A DNA stretch of 64,000 nucleotides, from the NCBI GenBank assembly GCA_000004695.1, contig CM000152.2, positions 2,400,001 through 2,464,000 of the forward strand. The letters run 5' to 3'. Both the position numbers and the translations under genes were made by a program. Origin of the DNA: Dictyostelium discoideum (taxonomy: Eukaryota). Positions 2,323 to 55,518 of this stretch are shown here, one piece after another; position 1 is the stretch's first letter; every line of letters begins with the position of its first letter. Below the pieces are notes generated by a model. That model was not told where the DNA came from. It searched no databases and saw only the letters and a program-made list of their open reading frames with translations.

Positions 2323-3099
2323 TTATTTTGCAAATTTCTTTTTTCTTTCTTCAACTGATAATGATGATGAACCATTAGTAGTGTTAACAGCAGTAGTAGT
2401 TGATTTTGTTGGTGGTGAAGAAAGTCCGAATTTCTTTTTTCTATCAACAATTTCATTGACTGAACCATAGATTTCCTCTTTTTTATTAACATGAATTTTA
2501 GATTTTTGTACTTTCACTTTAGTTTCTGGTAGGGGTGGTGGTGATGTGATTGAAATTGGTGCAGTTCCAAATTTTAATAGTCTTTTTCTTTTCTCTTCTT
2601 CTAATGCTGCTGCTGTTGGTATTTTATTTTTTGATGATGGTGATGATGATGATGATGATGATGTTGTTGTTGTTGTTGTTGCACTTGTTGCTGATGCTGA
2701 TGCTGTTGCACCACCACCACCTTGTGTAAATTTATTTAATCTATGAATTCTTCTTTCTTCTTCTGTCATTGTTGATACATCTATATTATTTTCATTAGCA
2801 TTAGTTTGTGGTTTTGCTGCTGTTGCTGCAGTTGTATTTTGTGTTGGTGTGGTTGTTGTAGTGGTGGTTGTTGGTATATTAGTTTTTGTCGATTCATTTG
2901 CCACAACCGTTGATGTGGAATCTGTTTTTTGTGTTGTTGATGTAATTGATGATGGAGAGGATGTACCATTTTTATTTATATGTTCCAATAATCTAGTTTG
3001 TAACTCTGCTTTCTTTCCTTTTGTATCTAATCCAAAATTTGAGAGTTCCTTTTGTAACTCTTTAACATTCATTTTTTCAACGTCTTCTTTGCTTAACAT
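2323..3099 (-). CDS. SAP-domain protein, SARNP/CIP29/Tho1-like (mRNA export factor family)
   Basis: The N-terminal MLSKEDVEKMNVKELQKELSNFGLDTKGKKAELQTRLLEH is a textbook SAP motif. The C-terminal half has repeated E-E-R-x-x-R-x-x-K-F(G/T/A) motifs (ERRIHRLNKFTQ, EEKRKRLLKFG, EERKKKFAK) like the RAERFG repeats of SARNP/Tho1. Single exon. Confidence 0.7.
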   Translation of the reverse strand: MLSKEDVEKMNVKELQKELSNFGLDTKGKKAELQTRLLEHINKNGTSSPSSITSTTQKTDSTSTVVANESTKTNIPTTTTTTTTPTQNTTAATAAKPQTNANENNIDVSTMTEEERRIHRLNKFTQGGGGATASASATSATTTTTTSSSSSSSPSSKNKIPTAAALEEEKRKRLLKFGTAPISITSPPPLPETKVKVQKSKIHVNKKEEIYGSVNEIVDRKKKFGLSSPPTKSTTTAVNTTNGSSSLSVEERKKKFAK

Positions 3100-4401
3100 T
3101 TTATTTTATGATATATATATATATAAAAAATATATTTTTAAATATTTTAAAAAAAAAAAAGTAAAAAGTAAAAAGGGAAAAAAAAAAAAAAAAAACTATA
3201 AAGACCAAAAAAGGTGCTCTGTTAATTTCAAATTTTTTTATAAATTTTGAAAAAAAAAAAAATAAAAAAAAAAATAAAAAAATAAAATTAAAAAAAATAA
3301 AAAAAAAAAAAAAAAATTGTGAACTGGAAAAAAAAAAAAAAATGTGAACAATTCAGTTCATTTGGTAATTAATCTTTTTATTTTTTTATTTTTTTTTTTG
3401 AAAAAATTTTGGAATTAAACAACTCTAATAATAGTAATAATAAAAAATTCAAAAAAAAAAAAAAAAAAAAGAAAACATTCAATAAATCTAAAAAAAAAAA
3501 AAAAAAAAAAAAAAAATTAAAAAAAACTAAAAAAAAAAAAAAAATAATAAAAAAAAATAAAAATAAAAATAATAATAATAAATTAATAAAATAATAATAA
3601 TAAATTAATATAAATCTAATTCAAATAATTAAATCATTGATTTATCTCTTTTGGATCTAATATTTCGAATTTATTTTATTAAGTCTTTTAAAATAATTTT
3701 ATTTTGCAGTTAAAAAAAAAAGTTTTTTTGGATAACTGCAAAAAAAAAAATATAAAAAATAAAAAAAAAAAATTAAAAAAAAAAAATAAAAATAAAAAAA
3801 AGATTTAAATCCAAAATTTAAATTTTCTTTTCGAGATTCTTTTATTGATTTTTTTTCTTTTTTTTTTTTTTTCCAAACCAACACTTATTTTTGTGCTTAT
3901 TTTTTTTGACCGTTGAGATCTGAACAATTAATTTTTTTTTTTTTTTTTTTTGATTTTGTTTAGAAAAAATATTTTTTAAAATAATTTTTTTTATGATTTT
4001 GTTTAGAAAAAAAAAAAATAAAAATATTTTTTAAAAAAAAAAAAAATTAAAATATTTTTTTAAAAAAAAAAAAAAAGATATTTATAAAAAAAAAAAAAAA
4101 AAAAGTTTTAATTTTTTAAAGATACATATTGTTGTCAGTCCTTTGCCAACTTATTTTTCAAATTTAAATTTTCTTGATTATTCTCTCAGCAAGCCCCCAT
4201 TTTTTTTTTGTGAGTTTTGAAATTTTTCATTTTTTTTTTTTTTTTTTTTTTTAAAAAATTTAAACTGGTGATTATGCACCTTTTTTTCATTGCTTTTATG
4301 ATTTTATAGATATTTTCTTGTGCATAAAATCATGTTTTTTAATTATTACGAGTGGATCTAAAAAAAAAAAAAATTCAAAAAAAAAAAAAAAAAAAAGATA
4401 A

Positions 4402-4436
<35 letters not shown>

Positions 4437-4850
4437 ATTATTTTATTTATTTTTTTTTTTTTAAAATTTTTCCACTTTTCTTTTTTATTTTTAATTTTTT
4501 TTTTTTTTCTTTTTTCTTTAATTTTTTTACTTTGTATCGCAACGGAAGGTCAGTTTTATTATTTTTGTTATAAACATCAAAATTTTATTTTTTTAAATTT
4601 TTTTATTTTTATTTTTTAAAATTTTTTTTTTATTTCTTGTCTCATTTTTATTTTATAGTTTTTAAAAAAATTTTATCATTATCATTAAAAATCTTTTATC
4701 GATAAAATAAAATTTATTTTTTGAAAAAAAATAAAATTTTAATAATAAGGTAAATCATCGATCTTTGATTTTTTCTTTTTTTAGTTTTTGGACATCTATC
4801 CCCATTTTTAAATCTTTTATAAATTTAATTAATTTCAAATTTTTTTTTTT

Positions 4851-4884
<34 letters not shown>

Positions 4885-5180
4885 TCAATTAAAATATAGA
4901 TTTTTTTAAAAAAATCATTAAATTGTATGTATCTCTCACACCTTTTTTTTTTTTTTTTTTTTTTTTATTTTTATTTTTTTTTTTTCAATTTTCGGCGAAA
5001 TCGTAAAAACCAAATCACAAATGGTGATTGAAAAAAAAAATAAAAAAAAACAAATTAATTAATTTAAAATTTTTTTTTATTTTCTAAAATTTTTATTTTT
5101 TTTTTTTCTAAAAGGCAGAGCGAAGAAAAAAAAAAAAAAAAAAAAAAAAAACCCCCCGGAACCCCTAAAAAAAAAAAAAA

Positions 5181-5210
<30 letters not shown>

Positions 5211-5217
<7 letters not shown>

Positions 5218-5532
5218 ATCTCCCCGTCCCCAAAAAAAACGAAAATTTTTCAAATATCCCATTGTCAACAATTTCAATTACTGAAATAAAATCCAAAGAT
5301 ATTATCAATGACCTACAAGCTCAATCAGACAAATTAAGAGATGGATTTTCAAATATAAAAAAAGGACTTGGAGTTGAAAAAAACTTTAATATATTCCCCA
5401 GCAACACCACATTCTCAGAAAAAGTACTTTTCGCCAACAATTTAATTTATTTATTAAAATTAACTTGGAATTCGTTGGCAAAATTACAACATTATCAAAG
5501 TGACACTAATCCATTATTTTCAATTGATAATG

Positions 5533-43616: not shown

Positions 43617-43913
43617 TTTTTTTTGTTTTGTTTGAATGATAATTATAATTCGTTTTTTAGAAAATAAAATTTTTTTTTTTTTTTTTTTTTTTTAATTAAA
43701 ATTTTTAAAAAATAATTTTGGAAATAGGATTTAAATAATAAGGGTATTAATATTAGATTTGAAAAATTGTTGGTTTCAAATAAAATAAAATATTTTCTAT
43801 TGTTTTGGAAATATTAATGTAGTTTATATACAAATAAAAAATTTTTTTTATACCATAAATTGACAAAAGTATAAAATTAAGTTTAGCTAAAAAAATTTTA
43901 TTACATCAAAAAT

Positions 43914-43986
43914 GCCTGGATGGCTCAGTAGGCAGAGCGAGCGGCTGTTAACCGCTAGGTCCATGGTTCGATCCCATGTCTAGGCG
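43914..43986 (+). tRNA. tRNA-Asn (anticodon GTT)
   Basis: Cloverleaf read by eye. Acceptor GCCTGGA/TCTAGGC, D-arm GCTC..GAGC, anticodon stem AGCGG/CCGCT with loop CTGTTAA (GTT), T-arm CATGG-TTCGATC-CCATG. Followed by T5 at 43991-43995. Confidence 0.9.
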
Positions 43987-44000
43987 ATACTTTTTAAATG

Positions 44001-48797: not shown

Positions 48798-49616
48798 TAA
48801 TCAATTATTAAAATAAAAAAAATGATAAAAATGATAAAAATGATAAAATTTTAACTTACTTTTATAACATAAATCAATAAATTGTTTAATTGTAAAACCC
48901 CAACCATCAAAAGCAGTTGTGAAAGCTACATTACCTTTTTGAGGTGAAAAATAATATTCAGTACCAATATTTTCATTAAAATTTAAATTTGAATCATCAG
49001 AGGATTCAATGTAATCCTCAGAGGATTCTTTTAGAATGATCTCTTCAGATGTTAATGTACCAGTGATTACATTAACTTGTTCAATTATTTTTGATAGATG
49101 TTGATAAGCTTCCAATGGGGTCATATGTAACTCGAGTATTAAACGATCAATTTTATTTAATACTAAACATGGTTTAACTTTTTCTTGATAAGCTTGTTTC
49201 AATACTGCATGAGTTTGTATACAAACACCTTCGACTGCATCAACCAATACTAATGCACCATCTGTAATTCTAACTGCTGTTGAAACTTCACTTGAAAAAT
49301 CCACATGTCCTGGTGAATCAATTAAATTAATTAAAAATGATTCTTTATCATTTGATGACGATGATGATGATGGTTGTTGAAATAATAATGAAATTGCACT
49401 TGCTTTCATTGTAATTTCTCTTTCTTGTTCATCTTCTAGAAAATCTAAATATCTTAATTTACCAGCCATCTCTGGTGAAATGATACCATTGCTACTGATT
49501 AAACAATCGGATAATGTGGTTTTACCATGATCAACATGTGCCAACACACATATATTTCTAATGTTTTTAGTATGATCTTGTAATGATGCTAATAGATTTG
49601 GTGAAATAGACGGCAT
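46020..49616 (-). CDS. efl1: Elongation factor-like GTPase 1 (EFL1/Ria1, 60S ribosome maturation), 2 exons (49616..48860, 48757..46020)
   Basis: N-terminus [47 protein letters not shown]...[15 protein letters not shown]...LVLNKIDRL (G1-G4 motifs). Exon 1 ends ...DLCYK+a at donor GTAAGT and the 102-bp intron ends ...ttag. Exon 2 carries the EFL1-specific acidic insertion ([24 protein letters not shown]) and the EF2-like domains IV/V. Confidence 0.85.
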
Positions 49617-50296
49617 CTTTTTTATTTATTTGATTTAATTTATTTCGAAATAAATAAAAAAAAAAAATAAAAAAAAAAAAAGAAAATTTTATTACAAAAA
49701 AAAAAAAAAAAAAAACTAGACGAAATGAAAAAAAATAAAAAATAAAAAAAATAAAAATAAAAAAAAATAAAAATGAAAAAAATCAATAGTTTTTTTTTTA
49801 TGAGAAATTAAACAAAAATATAAATAAAAAAAAGGTGGGATGGTAATGATTTATTAAAAATGATATTAAATAATTTAAATTCTATTAAAATAAAAATTGT
49901 TGTTATTTGATTTTTTTTTCTTTTTTTTTTTTTTTTTTGGAAATCCCTTAATAATTTATTTATTAAAAATTAATTGATAAAATAAATAAGAAAAAAGCTA
50001 AAAATGTCAATTTAAAATTATAAAGTATCATTATAAATAAATACAATCTTAAAAATTCAAACAAAATAATGAATCATTTATAATTGTTTTAAAGTTTTTT
50101 TTTTGTTTTTTTTGTTGTTGTTTTTGTTTGTAGTAGGAATGGTTTAGTTGTTTTTTGTTTTGTTGTTGAAGCAAAAAAACTCGAGTTGGAACTTCAAAGA
50201 ATTGAAAAAATGATTTAAAAATTTTTGTTTCACCAAGATTTTAAAAACTTTTAAAATCGGCGCCAAAAATGAATAAAAAAATATTTTTTTCAACAA

Positions 50297-50368
50297 GTTT
50301 CGATAGCTCAGTGGAAGAGCAAGCGACTGCAAATCGTTAGGTCGCCAGTTCAATCCTGGTTCGGAACT
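50297..50368 (+). tRNA. tRNA-Cys (anticodon GCA)
   Basis: Acceptor GTTTCGA/TCGGAAC, D-arm GCTC-AGTGGAA-GAGC, anticodon stem AGCGA/TCGTT with loop CTGCAAA (GCA), T-arm GCCAG-TTCAATC-CTGGT. Followed by T6 at 50372-50377. Confidence 0.88.
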
Positions 50369-50404
50369 TTCTTTTTTGTATCCCAATTTTCCGAACTTCG
50401 TAAA

Positions 50405-52792
50405 TTTTTTAATGTAAACCAGGCCCAGATGGAATTCCAAACTTATTCTACATAACACACAAAGAAAAACTAGCTCCAATACTGGCCTCAGCATTCAACG
50501 ACACTCTAAGAAATCCTCATCTAATTAGCAAAAATTACAAAGAAGGCCTCATTATCACGATACCTAAAAAGGGAGACCCCGAACTAATCAAAAACAGAAG
50601 ACCAATTACACTGGCTAACTGTATATATAAAATCCACTCAAAACTAATAAACAATAGAATAATCCCAATACTAACGAAAGTGATCAACCACAATCAAAAA
50701 GGTTTCGTACCAGGCAGATTCATTCTAGATAATATCATATCAATGAACGAATTAATCAACTATTGTAATGATAAAAGAATTAACGGAATAATTACACTAT
50801 ATGATTTCGAAAAAGCCTTTGACTCGATCTCACACGGTTCAATACTCAGATCACTACAACACATCAACATTCCAACCAATATAATCAACCTGATAATGAA
50901 TCTACTCACCAAATCTGAAGCAAGAATTGAAATTAATGGTAGAACTACTATACCCTTTGAGATCAAAAGAGGAGTTAAACAAGGAGATCCACTATCACCC
51001 ACCCTGTTCGTCCTTGTAATAGAGGCTTTAGCTAGAAAAATTTTACAAGATGACCGAATTACTGGCCTTCCTCTAAACAACAGCAACCACAGAGAGAAAT
51101 TCCAAAGCTTTGCAGACGACTCGGCTTCAATGGTCCCAGACTCTCAACAACTTGAATTAGTACTACAACACTTCAATTCATTTTGCAAAGCCACTTCCTC
51201 AAAACTAAACATCGACAAATCTTCATCAATTCTTATAGGCAACCCAGACAATACCAACCAAAGAATTCCAATATCTACAAATCCAGAAAGATACTTGGGA
51301 TACTTCTTCACAGGCAAAGGGATAACAAGAAAAATGCCAGAAATATTAAACACAATAAGATCATCCTTAGTACTATGGAAAACCACTGACTCAACAATCA
51401 AAACCAAAACCAACATCCTCAAAGCATTCGCACTCTCTAAATTAACCTACTATTCATATGTAGAGAACTTTAAGGAAGAGGAATTAAACCAAATCAATAA
51501 ATTAGTCGAATGGTTTTTATCGGCACCAAACAACAAAAATGCTAGTGGATTTCAAGTTATTAATTTAATGAGAACCAAAAGAGCAAGATACCCACTAAAA
51601 GTAGGAGGCTGGAACATTTGGAATATAGAATTGAGACAACTGGCGCAGAAACTTTGGATCATAAACCAGTTCATCCTAGCACTAGAAACCAAACAAACAA
51701 ACTCATCTCATCACAAAAGCTGGGAATATCAGATCCAAAAAAACAAATTCACATCCAGATACCTAAAAGAAAACTTAGACGAATGGAACAAAATAAGAAT
51801 AAAAAAAGCAATCTTCAACAATAATCTCACATCCATAAAAAACGAAAATGGACAACCACTTTCACTGGCAGAATGGTATACCACAATTCAAGACCAAAAT
51901 CCAACCATCCCTAAAACGGAATTCCAATCATCTCTAAACTTAAGAGGCTACAGCTATAATCAACTCTTCAACAACATACTGAAGATAAAAGACCCTAAAA
52001 CAAGAGACACAATGTTTAGATTCCATGCCAGATGCCTTCCAATAAACTACCTTCACAACAAACAATGCCCACTCTGCAAAGAAGATATGAGCAAAGACCC
52101 ATACGGTCACCTGTTCTTCTCATGCAAGAAAACAAAACAATTCATAAAAATAAATAAACTCAAAAATTTCATCTATATTACCACAGGCAAAGGTAAAAAC
52201 TGGCACCATACAAGAATTAGGCAAAATAACAATTTCATTAATAGAATAACTCCAAAATTATCACCGACAGCCAAAAAAGATCAAGAAGTGAATGCAGATT
52301 ACGCCAACCACAGATTCCACAAAGAATACTTTGAATGGAACTATAAAGCAATAGACTATGATCTAACCAGATCATTCGCATATAGAAACCTAATGGCCCT
52401 TATCCTCCACAACATTTGGATTTGGATTTGCAATCAAATATACAGTGAAGATCCTTTAACAAATGAATCACTATCATACAGCTCCCTTCTAAAGAAATGG
52501 CACAAATTGGCCACTCTAGAATACATCAAAAAAGCAAAAGATCTGAAAAACTTATCAGCAAAAGACCATAATAACTTCAAAGATCCTAAGATCCTTCTCA
52601 CTTCAACGATCAAGCTAAGAAAAACAACAGCTAATTACTATTGTATTCCAGAATCATCTCTCCCAAATATTATATCTTTTGATCAATTCATATGATTAAA
52701 ATAACCCTTCAGCTTAAATGATAAGCCTTTAAATAAATATTAAATAAAACTCGTATTAACACAGATGGACATATATCAATCTTGTTAATCCA

Positions 52793-52826
<34 letters not shown>
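50405..52826 (+). mobile_element. 5'-truncated non-LTR (LINE-like) retrotransposon in the TRE3 configuration: about 40 bp downstream of tRNA-Cys, same orientation, poly(A) tail
   Basis: Open frame from 50413 to TGA 52695 encodes the RT domain (PGPDGIPNLFY..., GFVPGRF, KAFDSISH, QGDPLSP, FADD) and a C-terminal CCHC-like CPLCKEDMSKDPYGHLFFSC. There is no ORF1 and no apurinic endonuclease domain upstream, so it is 5'-truncated. A27 at 52800-52826 marks the 3' end. The boundaries are approximate. Confidence 0.8.
50413..52695 (+). pseudogene. Truncated ORF2 (reverse transcriptase plus zinc knuckle) of the retrotransposon
   Basis: As above. It lacks a start codon and the N-terminal endonuclease. 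The ORF-track start at 50680 is a GTG inside the RT domain. Confidence 0.75.
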
Positions 52827-52828
<2 letters not shown>

Positions 52829-53261
52829 AATAAAGGAACACACAATTAATATTATATGAATGCTGTAAAGAGTGAATCAAAACTAACTTTATTTTTTTCA
52901 TTTTTTTCAGTTTTTATAATTTTCGAGTTTTCATTATTTTCGGCCGAGGAGTTTCGAACGAAAACTCTAAAACATATAAAAACTAAATAAATTAATTATT
53001 ATTTTAATTATTATTGTTTAATTCATTACAATTTTTTTTTAATAAAATATTTATTTGTCAATGGAGATCTTTACTTTTTTAGGAAAACATACAAACAATA
53101 ATAGATTTTTTAATATATTTTTCAATGCATTCACCCAAATTATATTACTTTTTTTAATAAAAATATATTTTTAATTACATAATCAATGATATTTAGTTTT
53201 GTTTTTACTTTAATATTATTTATTTATTTATTTATTTGATTATTTATTATTTAATTATTAA

Positions 53262-55518
53262 TTAATTTTTTGGAGGAATTGCTAATGATAAAATTGAAGG
53301 ATGAACATTTACAATTGCTTTTTGGAAATTTTCAGTACCAAATAGATTTGAACATTCTTGAATCTTTTGATATAAATAAGTTGAGAGATCAATAGTAGTA
53401 AGTGGATCAACTTGAAAGATATGATCGGATTGAATTTGAACGCCACTAACTTCATCTCCATCATTGCAATAGATATCATCATGTGTGATATCAGAGATAT
53501 CAGCTCTTATACCAACTACATTTGTAATGATTTCACCAATTTGTGGATAAACCTCTTCTCTTGGAATTGCCAAAAGATTTGAAAGACCAATTGCAATTAG
53601 TTTTCTTTGATCACTTGAACTTGTTGAATCAATTTTATCAAAATAAATTTCAAAGAATTGTTGTAAAAGTTGAGATTTATTTTGTGGCATTTCTTTAATT
53701 TTACTTTGACCATCATCGTCATCGTCATCATCATCATTGTTATCATTATTAAAATTTGAAGGATCATAATATTCACCATCTTTATCTAATAACTCCAATG
53801 GATAACGATCAAATAATTGAAAGAATGATAAAGGATTCATTGTCATAATTCTTGAAAATATTGAAAAGTATTCAATTAATACCAAAGTACTCGTTTCTTT
53901 ACGACTAATGATTAATGATAAAATTTTGAATAAACATTGTTCAATTAAGAGTGTTATAGAATCTTGAGGATTTGGTACGACTTGAATGATTCTCATTATT
54001 GCACTTACTATGAGTTCAGTGTATTCTTCACCTAGATCACCAATGATATCGTATAGGGTTGAGGATAATTCAGCACCATAAATTTTGAGGAAATCAATTT
54101 GACCCAATAATAAATAAGTATCCAAAATTTTGAAACAAATTTCTGAATTCTCCAATGACTGAGCAATGATTGTAAACCAATGTTTAAACATTTGAATCAA
54201 TGGTTGTTGAGGTTGTGATAAAGTTGGTACCAACACCATGGTTCTATACCAAAGCTCCAAACCATCCTCCAAGAGGTAAACTTTCTCATCTTCTTGAGAG
54301 ATTGAAAACTCAATGATTGGGAAGAGTAAAGAGTAGAAATCAGCAGGATCACTATTTAAAGCTTGTAAAAAGAATGCAAATGAACGTAACACTGCACTCT
54401 TTACAATTGGTTGTTCCTTACCGCCATTCCAAAGATGTTGAAACAATTGTAAGATCACTGTTGAGAATGGTTTGATGCTTTCATTGAATTTAACGAAAAT
54501 CGAGGCTAAAGCAGAGAGTAAATTTGATTTTGTGGTTTCGTTAGTGGATCTTGAGAATAAACCAATTACAGATTCCAAGGTTTCTTTTAGATAAGGTTGG
54601 TAGGAATGATGATCGAAATTGAAATCATCGATATAGGCCTTCAACGCGTCCAATGCTGTCAAGGCGATAACAATATCGGAATTCTTTAAAAACTCTAATA
54701 AAAGTTTAACAACACTCTCTTTATATTGATCGGGTATTTTACCCACCCAATAACTGACCAACCAAAGGATACGACGTTTAATAATCTTAAATCTTTCATC
54801 TGCACTATGTAACTCTGGTACGAAAATCGATATAAACACTTGTGAAAAGTTTACAATATCCATTAGATCATGGTACCCCAACCCAATGGTCATATAACAT
54901 GCCTCCTTTAGACAAATCTTCTCGCTGGTTAACTCTGTATTGAACGATGGTGATGTCACAAACTCCAACATTGACACGACGATCGACACTGAATCTTGGT
55001 GGAAATGTCTCATCAAGAGTATGAATAGATTGTAAGCCGATGGTTTCAATTCGTATACTGAATCGTTGACTTGTAACTCTTGAATATACTCCTCGGGTGA
55101 ATCTTCCCATCTTTCAACCTCTTCTCTATTTATAATTAAATAATGTGATACCAATGCCTTCAACAATTCACTTAACAACTCTTTATTAAAGAATTGTTTA
55201 ATAGTTTGTTGTGCAATTTGAATCGATCCATTACCATTTATCTTTCCACCTGATTTTATTGCTAAATTACTAATACTCTGCTTCTCATCTGTCTCTGAAT
55301 CTAAATAATCACCTTGATACGATGAACAATCAATTACCTGCTTTAAAAAGTTTAAACTTTGTGTCATCACTGATTGATAATCCTCTGTCGTATTCCATTC
55401 AATCTTTAATTCATCATGTGGATTATAATATAAACATTGACCAGCAAAAAATCTTAAACTTGGTAATAATAAATTTATAAATGTTAATGGGTTTTGAAGT
55501 TGTGATTTAATAATTGTC

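Follow-up and report, generated by a model that had tools for sequence, protein, structure and literature searches.

How did a reverse transcriptase (RT) frame come to lie directly behind a transfer RNA gene, without a start codon at its opening, without a first open reading frame (ORF1) and without an endonuclease domain? The question is raised by a 64,000-nt stretch of Dictyostelium discoideum DNA (the window; all coordinates below are window positions), where a tRNA-Cys(GCA) gene at 50297-50368 (+) is followed by a retrotransposon sequence that ends in a poly(A) tail. Since the 1990s, TRE3 elements have been known to favour sites downstream of tRNA genes, and about 61% of the D. discoideum tRNA genes carry a TRE. 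We found that the window sequence is very probably a recent, 5'-truncated, dead-on-arrival copy of TRE3-A, inserted 50 bp downstream of tRNA-Cys(GCA) and in the transcriptional orientation of the tRNA. Its position, its orientation, its poly(A) tail, its sharp 5' truncation and its presence/absence polymorphism were all directly observed.

Structure and polymorphism of the insertion

The tRNA-Cys gene, the RNA polymerase III (Pol III) target, was recovered by ARAGORN (50296-50369) and by Rfam (RF00005 tRNA, 61.4 bits, E=4.8e-12), as the initial annotation had predicted. It was the sole match in an Rfam scan of 49500-53600 (E≤1). Downstream of it, we delimited a 5'-truncated TRE3-A-type non-LTR (long terminal repeat) retrotransposon at 50419-52826 (+), consisting of 2,379 bp of unique sequence plus the poly(A) tail, by blastn against other copies of its family. 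Two D. discoideum loci that hold such copies are referred to here as L001 and L002, and a locus with related TRE families as L010. The window sequence 50419-52823 is 99.5% identical to L001 4904-7308, and 98.7-99.5% identical to four further copies. The 5' junction lies at 50418/50419, where homology to the full-length copies sets in abruptly, 50 bp from the 3' end of tRNA-Cys. The initial annotation, which had proposed a 5'-truncated TRE3-type long interspersed nuclear element (LINE) arranged head to tail behind the tRNA, was right about the type, the truncation, the side and the orientation: the sequence matches the 3' part of elements with two ORFs, in the published TRE3 placement. Only its distance of about 40 bp has to be corrected to 50 bp.

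Measured on a full-length copy of ~5,227 bp, the retained part spans about positions 2849-5227, or the 3' 45%. About 2,848 bp are absent at the 5' end, comprising the 5' untranslated region (UTR), ORF1 and the endonuclease domain, parts that full-length relatives carry, the endonuclease domain by a weak profile match; the absence of ORF1 and endonuclease had been noticed from the window alone, and this exact truncation point, with homology from 50419, is an added value of the comparison. Without these parts, and without any promoter that the 5' UTR may hold, the copy is unable to move by itself.

A TAA at 50410-50412 precedes the reading frame, whose 760 codons from 50413 onward are uninterrupted until the TGA at 52693-52695. 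This frame had already been described as opening at 50413 without a start codon, and indeed the first start codon stands at codon 111. The element proper begins only at 50419: TGT AAA (50413-50418) is host DNA, which prolongs the reading frame of the element by accident, by two codons. Residues 50-297 of the 760-aa frame form the RT domain (50560-51303, +; Pfam RVT_1, E=6.9e-34, profile positions 1-203 of 205), with the catalytic FADD motif located in the translation at 51109-51120 (+). A C-terminal CCHC zinc finger, CPLCKEDMSKDPYGHLFFSC, was matched in the translation by the pattern CX2CX10HX4C at 52066-52125 (+). The 3' UTR (52696-52797, +) aligns base for base with other copies up to ...CCAATATT, and is followed by the poly(A) tail at 52798-52826 (+). 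This A run ends at 52826, as first reported, and counts 29 rather than 27 residues, two A's lying before 52800. The nuclear genome is very rich in A and T, and the GC content is 34% in the element versus 14% in the spacer upstream of tRNA-Cys. When the whole window was searched by tblastn with TRE3- and TRE5-like ORF2 proteins, no match was obtained except at 50419-52692.

The tRNA-Cys gene and the TRE3 copy sit inside a 3.6-kb spacer that separates a convergent pair of genes, an importin-11-like gene and an EFL1-like gene. On one side, a 702-aa frame at 53262-55370 (-) is 100% identical to DDB_G0279693 of D. discoideum AX4 (importin-11-like, with IBN_N and TPR_IPO11 domains); on the other side lies an EFL1-type GTPase gene. 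We compared the orthologous importin-EFL1 interval across seven other assemblies: a second assembly of the same D. discoideum lineage as the window (GCA_054883475.1), two other D. discoideum isolates (GCA_054859355.1 and GCA_054859385.1), D. cf. discoideum, D. citrinum, D. dimigraforme and D. firmibasis. The second assembly of the lineage carries the identical insertion behind an identical tRNA-Cys, with a poly(A) tail shorter by 3 A's. The insertion is missing at the orthologous site in the other six genomes, so that the empty site suggested for checking in other strains was found in two D. discoideum isolates and in four related species. In all six, a tRNA-Cys(GCA) of identical sequence stands at the corresponding position and points the same way, within a spacer of 0.7-1.8 kb without TRE sequence. 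Because the identical tRNA-Cys stands at sites without the element, it is the target and not a part of the element, the latter having been raised at the outset as a possibility, and the insertion is a lineage-specific polymorphism.

Set against five other copies, the window copy shows 2 substitutions private to it over 2,381 bp. The host (importin) exons at 53262-55370 diverge by 2.5-2.7% between the window and the two empty-site D. discoideum isolates. These values indicate that the insertion is much younger than the split from the empty-site isolates, and the 760-codon frame is still intact because the insertion is very young. It appears to have taken place in the lineage of the sequenced laboratory strain, after this lineage parted from the other sequenced D. 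discoideum isolates. The result is a dated polymorphism, with the laboratory lineage filled and two wild-type D. discoideum assemblies plus four related species empty, which agrees with recent TRE3-A activity. Lying between two convergent genes, the insertion is probably neutral. We also observed that the intergenic DNA of the two empty-site isolates is largely unalignable with the window, a deep divergence for one species.

Mode of integration and the flanking DNA

Following the TRE literature, a TRE3 RNA-protein complex would have been drawn to the Pol III transcription complex on tRNA-Cys, via the B box and TFIIIC. The ORF2 endonuclease, to judge from TRE and L1-type elements, would have nicked the target DNA, and the poly(A) tail would have primed reverse transcription, in a process of target-primed reverse transcription (TPRT). 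Either cDNA synthesis or the joining of the 5' end may then have halted ~2.85 kb short of the 5' end, giving the truncation. In this respect the copy resembles 5'-truncated mammalian L1, which is likewise dead on arrival, results from incomplete TPRT and retains its 3' end and poly(A). Unlike the window element, L1 does not target Pol III genes, and its target-site duplications (TSDs) are usually 7-20 bp, whereas none was seen here.

Several points weigh against a canonical TRE3-A insertion. No TSD longer than 4 bp is present at this locus, compared with 11-15 bp in the three other copies examined. A non-canonical integration or a later rearrangement is possible. The original target sequence is not reconstructable, because ~205 bp after the poly(A) tail have no counterpart in the empty-site genomes. 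The name TRE3-A was reached indirectly, from length, ORF layout and abundance and not from alignment to a named TRE3-A reference. Finally, in full-length copies the N-terminus of ORF2, which precedes RT, covers the whole Exo_endo_phos profile in a weak match (E=0.0013), scoring 18.9 bits and thus below the Pfam gathering score of 24.5.

The initial annotation could not identify a TSD, and neither could we. A search for k-mers (≥7 nt) that occur exactly in both the 50-bp 5' flank and the 300 bp from the poly(A) onward returned nothing but A/T-only 7-9-mers, none of which adjoined both junctions. The longest repeat adjoining both junctions is TAAA, 4 bp. The missing TSD is a trait of the individual insertion event and not of the sequence family of the element, and such an atypical insertion could interest students of TRE3 integration mechanics.

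Both flanks of the element were then considered against the empty sites. The last host flank before the element, AATTTTTTAATGTAAA (50403-50418, +; 16 nt), differs from that of the empty-site strains. The segment of ~205 bp after the poly(A) (52827-53031, no strand assigned) is lineage-specific flank and not TRE3, being without a counterpart after the poly(A) of other copies. For neither the 16 nt nor the ~205 bp was a counterpart found in any of the six empty-site genomes. Between the tRNA-to-importin spacer of the window and theirs, alignment is confined to the tRNA, to the TTCCGAACTTCGTA motif and to the 100-150 bp next to the importin gene. The absent counterpart is weak evidence, because the spacer is unalignable even among the empty-site genomes themselves.

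These flanks bear on an alternative that we regard as unlikely, in which the same element arrived without a clean endonuclease-dependent TPRT. It could have entered with a target-site deletion or at a pre-existing break, by gene conversion or break repair from another TRE3-A locus together with the 205-bp flank, or it could have been followed by a later insertion or rearrangement beside the poly(A). Such an arrival would account for a TSD of ≤4 bp where other copies have 11-15 bp, and for the 205 bp and 16 nt that have no empty-site counterpart; imperfect direct repeats, AATTTTTT and TTTTTTAAT, moreover flank the whole block of TRE3 plus 205 bp. However, TPRT classically leaves a poly(A) tail and a sharp 5' truncation, both seen here. 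The lack of a counterpart says little when even the exons of the empty-site isolates diverge by 2.5-2.7% and the AT-rich spacer cannot be aligned among them, and A/T-only repeats of 8-9 nt are expected by chance at 14-20% GC.

The ~205-bp segment contains an imperfect inverted repeat (52909-52931 / 52959-52984) with arms of ~23-26 nt and a GC-rich core at 52937-52960. Folded as DNA, the repeat reaches -13.4 kcal/mol (z=-4.0), and 0 of 200 shuffles was as good. A GC-rich hairpin block had been noticed at 52920-52970, with doubt as to whether it belonged to the element; it exists, as the centre of this longer inverted repeat, and it is not TRE3 sequence, because unrelated DNA follows the poly(A) in other copies. 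By blastn against all loci compared, the block matched nothing except the same locus in the second assembly of the lineage, and we rejected it as a part of TRE3 or of another element in those loci. The GC-rich core is unique in the window and in the 10 loci. Exact-match scans of metagenome and prokaryote collections with the core gave no match, which carries little weight as these collections hold no Dictyostelium genomes.

Two further readings of the segment found no support. The hairpin block was suspected to resemble the Dictyostelium class I RNA motif, which the Rfam scan at E≤1 did not bear out, and no upstream element was seen. A 3' transduction was set aside since no second poly(A) follows the segment.

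Joined together, TGTAAA from the left of the element and 52827-53031 form a 211-bp unit with the ends TGTAA...TTACA, bracketed by AATTTTTT(TTT)AAT. In length, this unit is like the LTR of Skipper-2 (DGLT-P): the Dd_Skipper-2 LTR measures 208 bp, the element also integrates downstream of tRNA genes, and a survey listed no solo Skipper-2 LTRs in AX4 (PMC5006619, Table 1). Unlike Skipper-2, the unit has no flanking TSD of 4-6 bp. With no such TSD and no solo copies in the published survey, we rejected a solo Skipper-2 LTR and keep it only as an unlikely origin. Rather doubtful, too, is the idea that TRE3-A landed in an uncatalogued small element, either the 211-bp TGTAA...TTACA unit or one of foldback type, or that TRE3 and its 3' flank were co-copied by break repair.

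Relatives of the element and its subfamily

Whichever way the TRE3 copy arrived, its family could be followed through its full-length relatives. A protein search with the window frame returned D. discoideum proteins that are ~100% identical, the best being a 1,059-aa product in a cluster of 79 members. This cluster, the family of the window element, is the largest among the matches, the next TRE3-like family counting 13. The initial annotation had allowed for a best match to a non-TRE LINE family or to DDT or DIRS; the best matches are members of the same family. L001 encodes the 1,059-aa product and holds a full-length element. The ORF1 of this element has 416 aa, and the frame of its ORF2, shifted by -1, continues uninterrupted past the stop of ORF1. 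Full-length copies extend from a short A-run plus CCGTACCGC to ...CCAATATT, over ~5,227 bp (L001 2056-7282; L002 12777-17993), and their start was recognised as A-run/CCGTACC.

These properties were compared with published ones. Dd_TRE3-A is 5,229 bp long, with 67 copies located 14-228 bp from a tRNA (PMC5006619, Table 1). TREs have two ORFs, the order APE-RT-ZF (endonuclease, RT, zinc finger) in ORF2 and a poly(A) end (PMC5006619). TRE3 integrates 40-150 bp downstream of a tRNA gene in the same orientation, and TRE3-A has a -1 frameshift between ORF1 and ORF2 (PMC5911963); it is also the most abundant TRE3 (PMC5911963; PMC5006619). The window element is like TRE3-A in lying downstream of a tRNA in the same orientation, at 50 bp and hence within the published range, in its poly(A), and in its ORF2 with RT and zinc finger; its full-length relatives are like TRE3-A in their size, their -1 overlap of ORF1 and ORF2, their probable APE-RT-ZF layout and their standing as the most abundant TRE3-like family. 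Unlike a full TRE3-A, the window copy is without the first ~2.85 kb (5' UTR, ORF1, APE) and without a recognisable TSD. On the full-length size, the -1 ORF overlap and the copy abundance, we assign the element to subfamily TRE3-A with good confidence. TRE3-A was formerly named Tdd-3. Elements of this kind are already known, the reference organism is well studied and its genome annotated, and the copy behaves as published.

The names of the cluster members ('hypothetical protein', 'Reverse transcriptase domain-containing') and the literature on their DDB_G ids yielded no subfamily name. DDB_G0285835, considered as the product of the window locus, was rejected: it is another copy, apparently on another chromosome, as its contig differs from that of the importin gene.

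Other members of the family behave in the same manner. In L002, a 5'-truncated copy with a TSD of 14-15 bp shares the orientation of a tRNA-Thr(TGT) and begins ~83 bp after it, beyond a canonical external B box. A homologue in D. purpureum is 63% identical, and the TREs of that genome are reportedly all TRE3-like (PMC5006619). TRE3-A copies were also seen in head-to-tail tandems (L001 1-7307; L002 4801-10187), each new copy standing just past the previous poly(A) with its own TSD (ATAATGCATAA in L001, ~11 bp).

That the element belongs to TRE3-B, TRE3-C or TRE3-D instead of TRE3-A seems improbable to us. The suspicion could arise from AAD43057.1 'pol', the sole named GenBank protein recovered, which falls in a different family, 45% identical to the window element. 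In published consensus sequences, TRE3-B measures 5,279 bp and TRE3-C 4,734 bp, and TRE3-D is a partial consensus of 1,559 bp (PMC5006619, Table 1), whereas the ~5,227 bp of the full-length relatives fit the 5,229 bp of TRE3-A. The family of the window element is, besides, the largest cluster among the matches. The 45%-identical family is the next one; it includes AAD43057.1, and one of its copies, in L010, is 4,976 bp long. Because this copy exceeds the length of TRE3-C, the family would be TRE3-B by elimination, and it thus takes up the place of the other family of 5.2-5.3 kb. Its copy in L010 integrated in the manner of TRE3-A: it follows a tRNA-Asn at 63 bp, reads in the direction of that gene, ends in A17 and is flanked by a TSD of 12 bp. 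Unlike the window family, it has a longer ORF2 (1,275 aa; ~45% identical) with a clear Exo_endo_phos domain.

A third family, 35% identical and with a 454-aa ORF1, lies ~50 bp upstream of the same tRNA-Asn in L010 and in the opposite orientation, which is the behaviour of TRE5-A (DRE). TRE5 elements are known to occupy this upstream position, ~50 bp from the tRNA gene and pointing the other way (PMC5911963). TRE5-A and the window element share tRNA-gene targeting and a related ORF2 of the L1 clade (35% identity), and differ in side and orientation as seen in L010, and in the modular 5' UTR of TRE5-A. As an observation on L010 itself, its tRNA-Asn is occupied on both sides, by the TRE5-A-like element ~50 bp upstream and the TRE3-B-like element 63 bp downstream, and the 5' region of the TRE5-A-like element holds, at L010 2330-3400, more than five head-to-tail repeats of a ~200-bp unit.

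The intact 760-codon RT frame also raises the thought of a domesticated host gene, since the frame is open, FADD and CCHC are intact, and gene callers annotated a 650-aa product at the same site in the second assembly of the lineage. We consider this very improbable. The insertion is missing at the locus in all other isolates and species compared, and as just 2 private substitutions set the copy apart from mobile ones, it is youth and not selection that explains its intact frame. The copy is, in addition, without the promoter-bearing 5' end and has no start codon before codon 111. A TRE5-type or other non-TRE LINE that came to lie near the tRNA by chance can practically be dismissed: dictyostelid TRE ORF2 proteins are all related, and TRE5-like families do match the frame at 35-38% identity, but the nearest relatives are 99-100% identical and belong to a family whose copies stand behind tRNA genes and point the same way, the 35%-identical family with TRE5 placement in L010 is clearly distinct, and the window element lies downstream and in the same orientation, not upstream and opposite.

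The tRNA-Cys gene and its surroundings

The tRNA-Cys gene contains an internal B box, GTTCAATCC, at 50348-50356 (+). Immediately 3' of the gene, a T-run, TTCTTTTTT, is read at 50369-50377 (+), and from general Pol III biology it presumably serves as the Pol III terminator. Alignment with the empty-site loci revealed a conserved flank motif, ATTTTCCGAACTTCGTA, at 50386-50402 (+), 18-34 bp past tRNA-Cys. The motif is kept in the two other D. discoideum isolates and in D. cf. discoideum, and in part in D. dimigraforme, while the remaining spacer is unalignable.

The reverse complement of ATTTTCCGAACTTCGTA, GTTCGGAA, is B-box-like and repeats the 3' acceptor end of the tRNA. Part of the motif, TTCCGAACTTCG, occupies 50389-50400, the position taken by canonical external B boxes in D. 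firmibasis and D. dimigraforme; those nearby read GGTTCGATTCC in D. firmibasis and GTTCGAATC in D. dimigraforme. The 50 bp between tRNA-Cys and the element contain no canonical external B box in forward orientation. From its sequence and location, ATTTTCCGAACTTCGTA may act as the external B box.

Upstream of tRNA-Cys, a segment of ~180 bp (50017-50200), partly GT-rich (TTGTTGTTGTTTTTG...), is present in the window and in the second assembly of the lineage, and is missing from the other D. discoideum isolates. The window holds a second tRNA gene, tRNA-Asn(GTT), at 43913-43987 (+), without TRE-related coding sequence nearby. A tRNA-Asn(GTT) also occurs in five of the six empty-site loci (all but that of isolate GCA_054859385.1), on the opposite strand in D. 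firmibasis.

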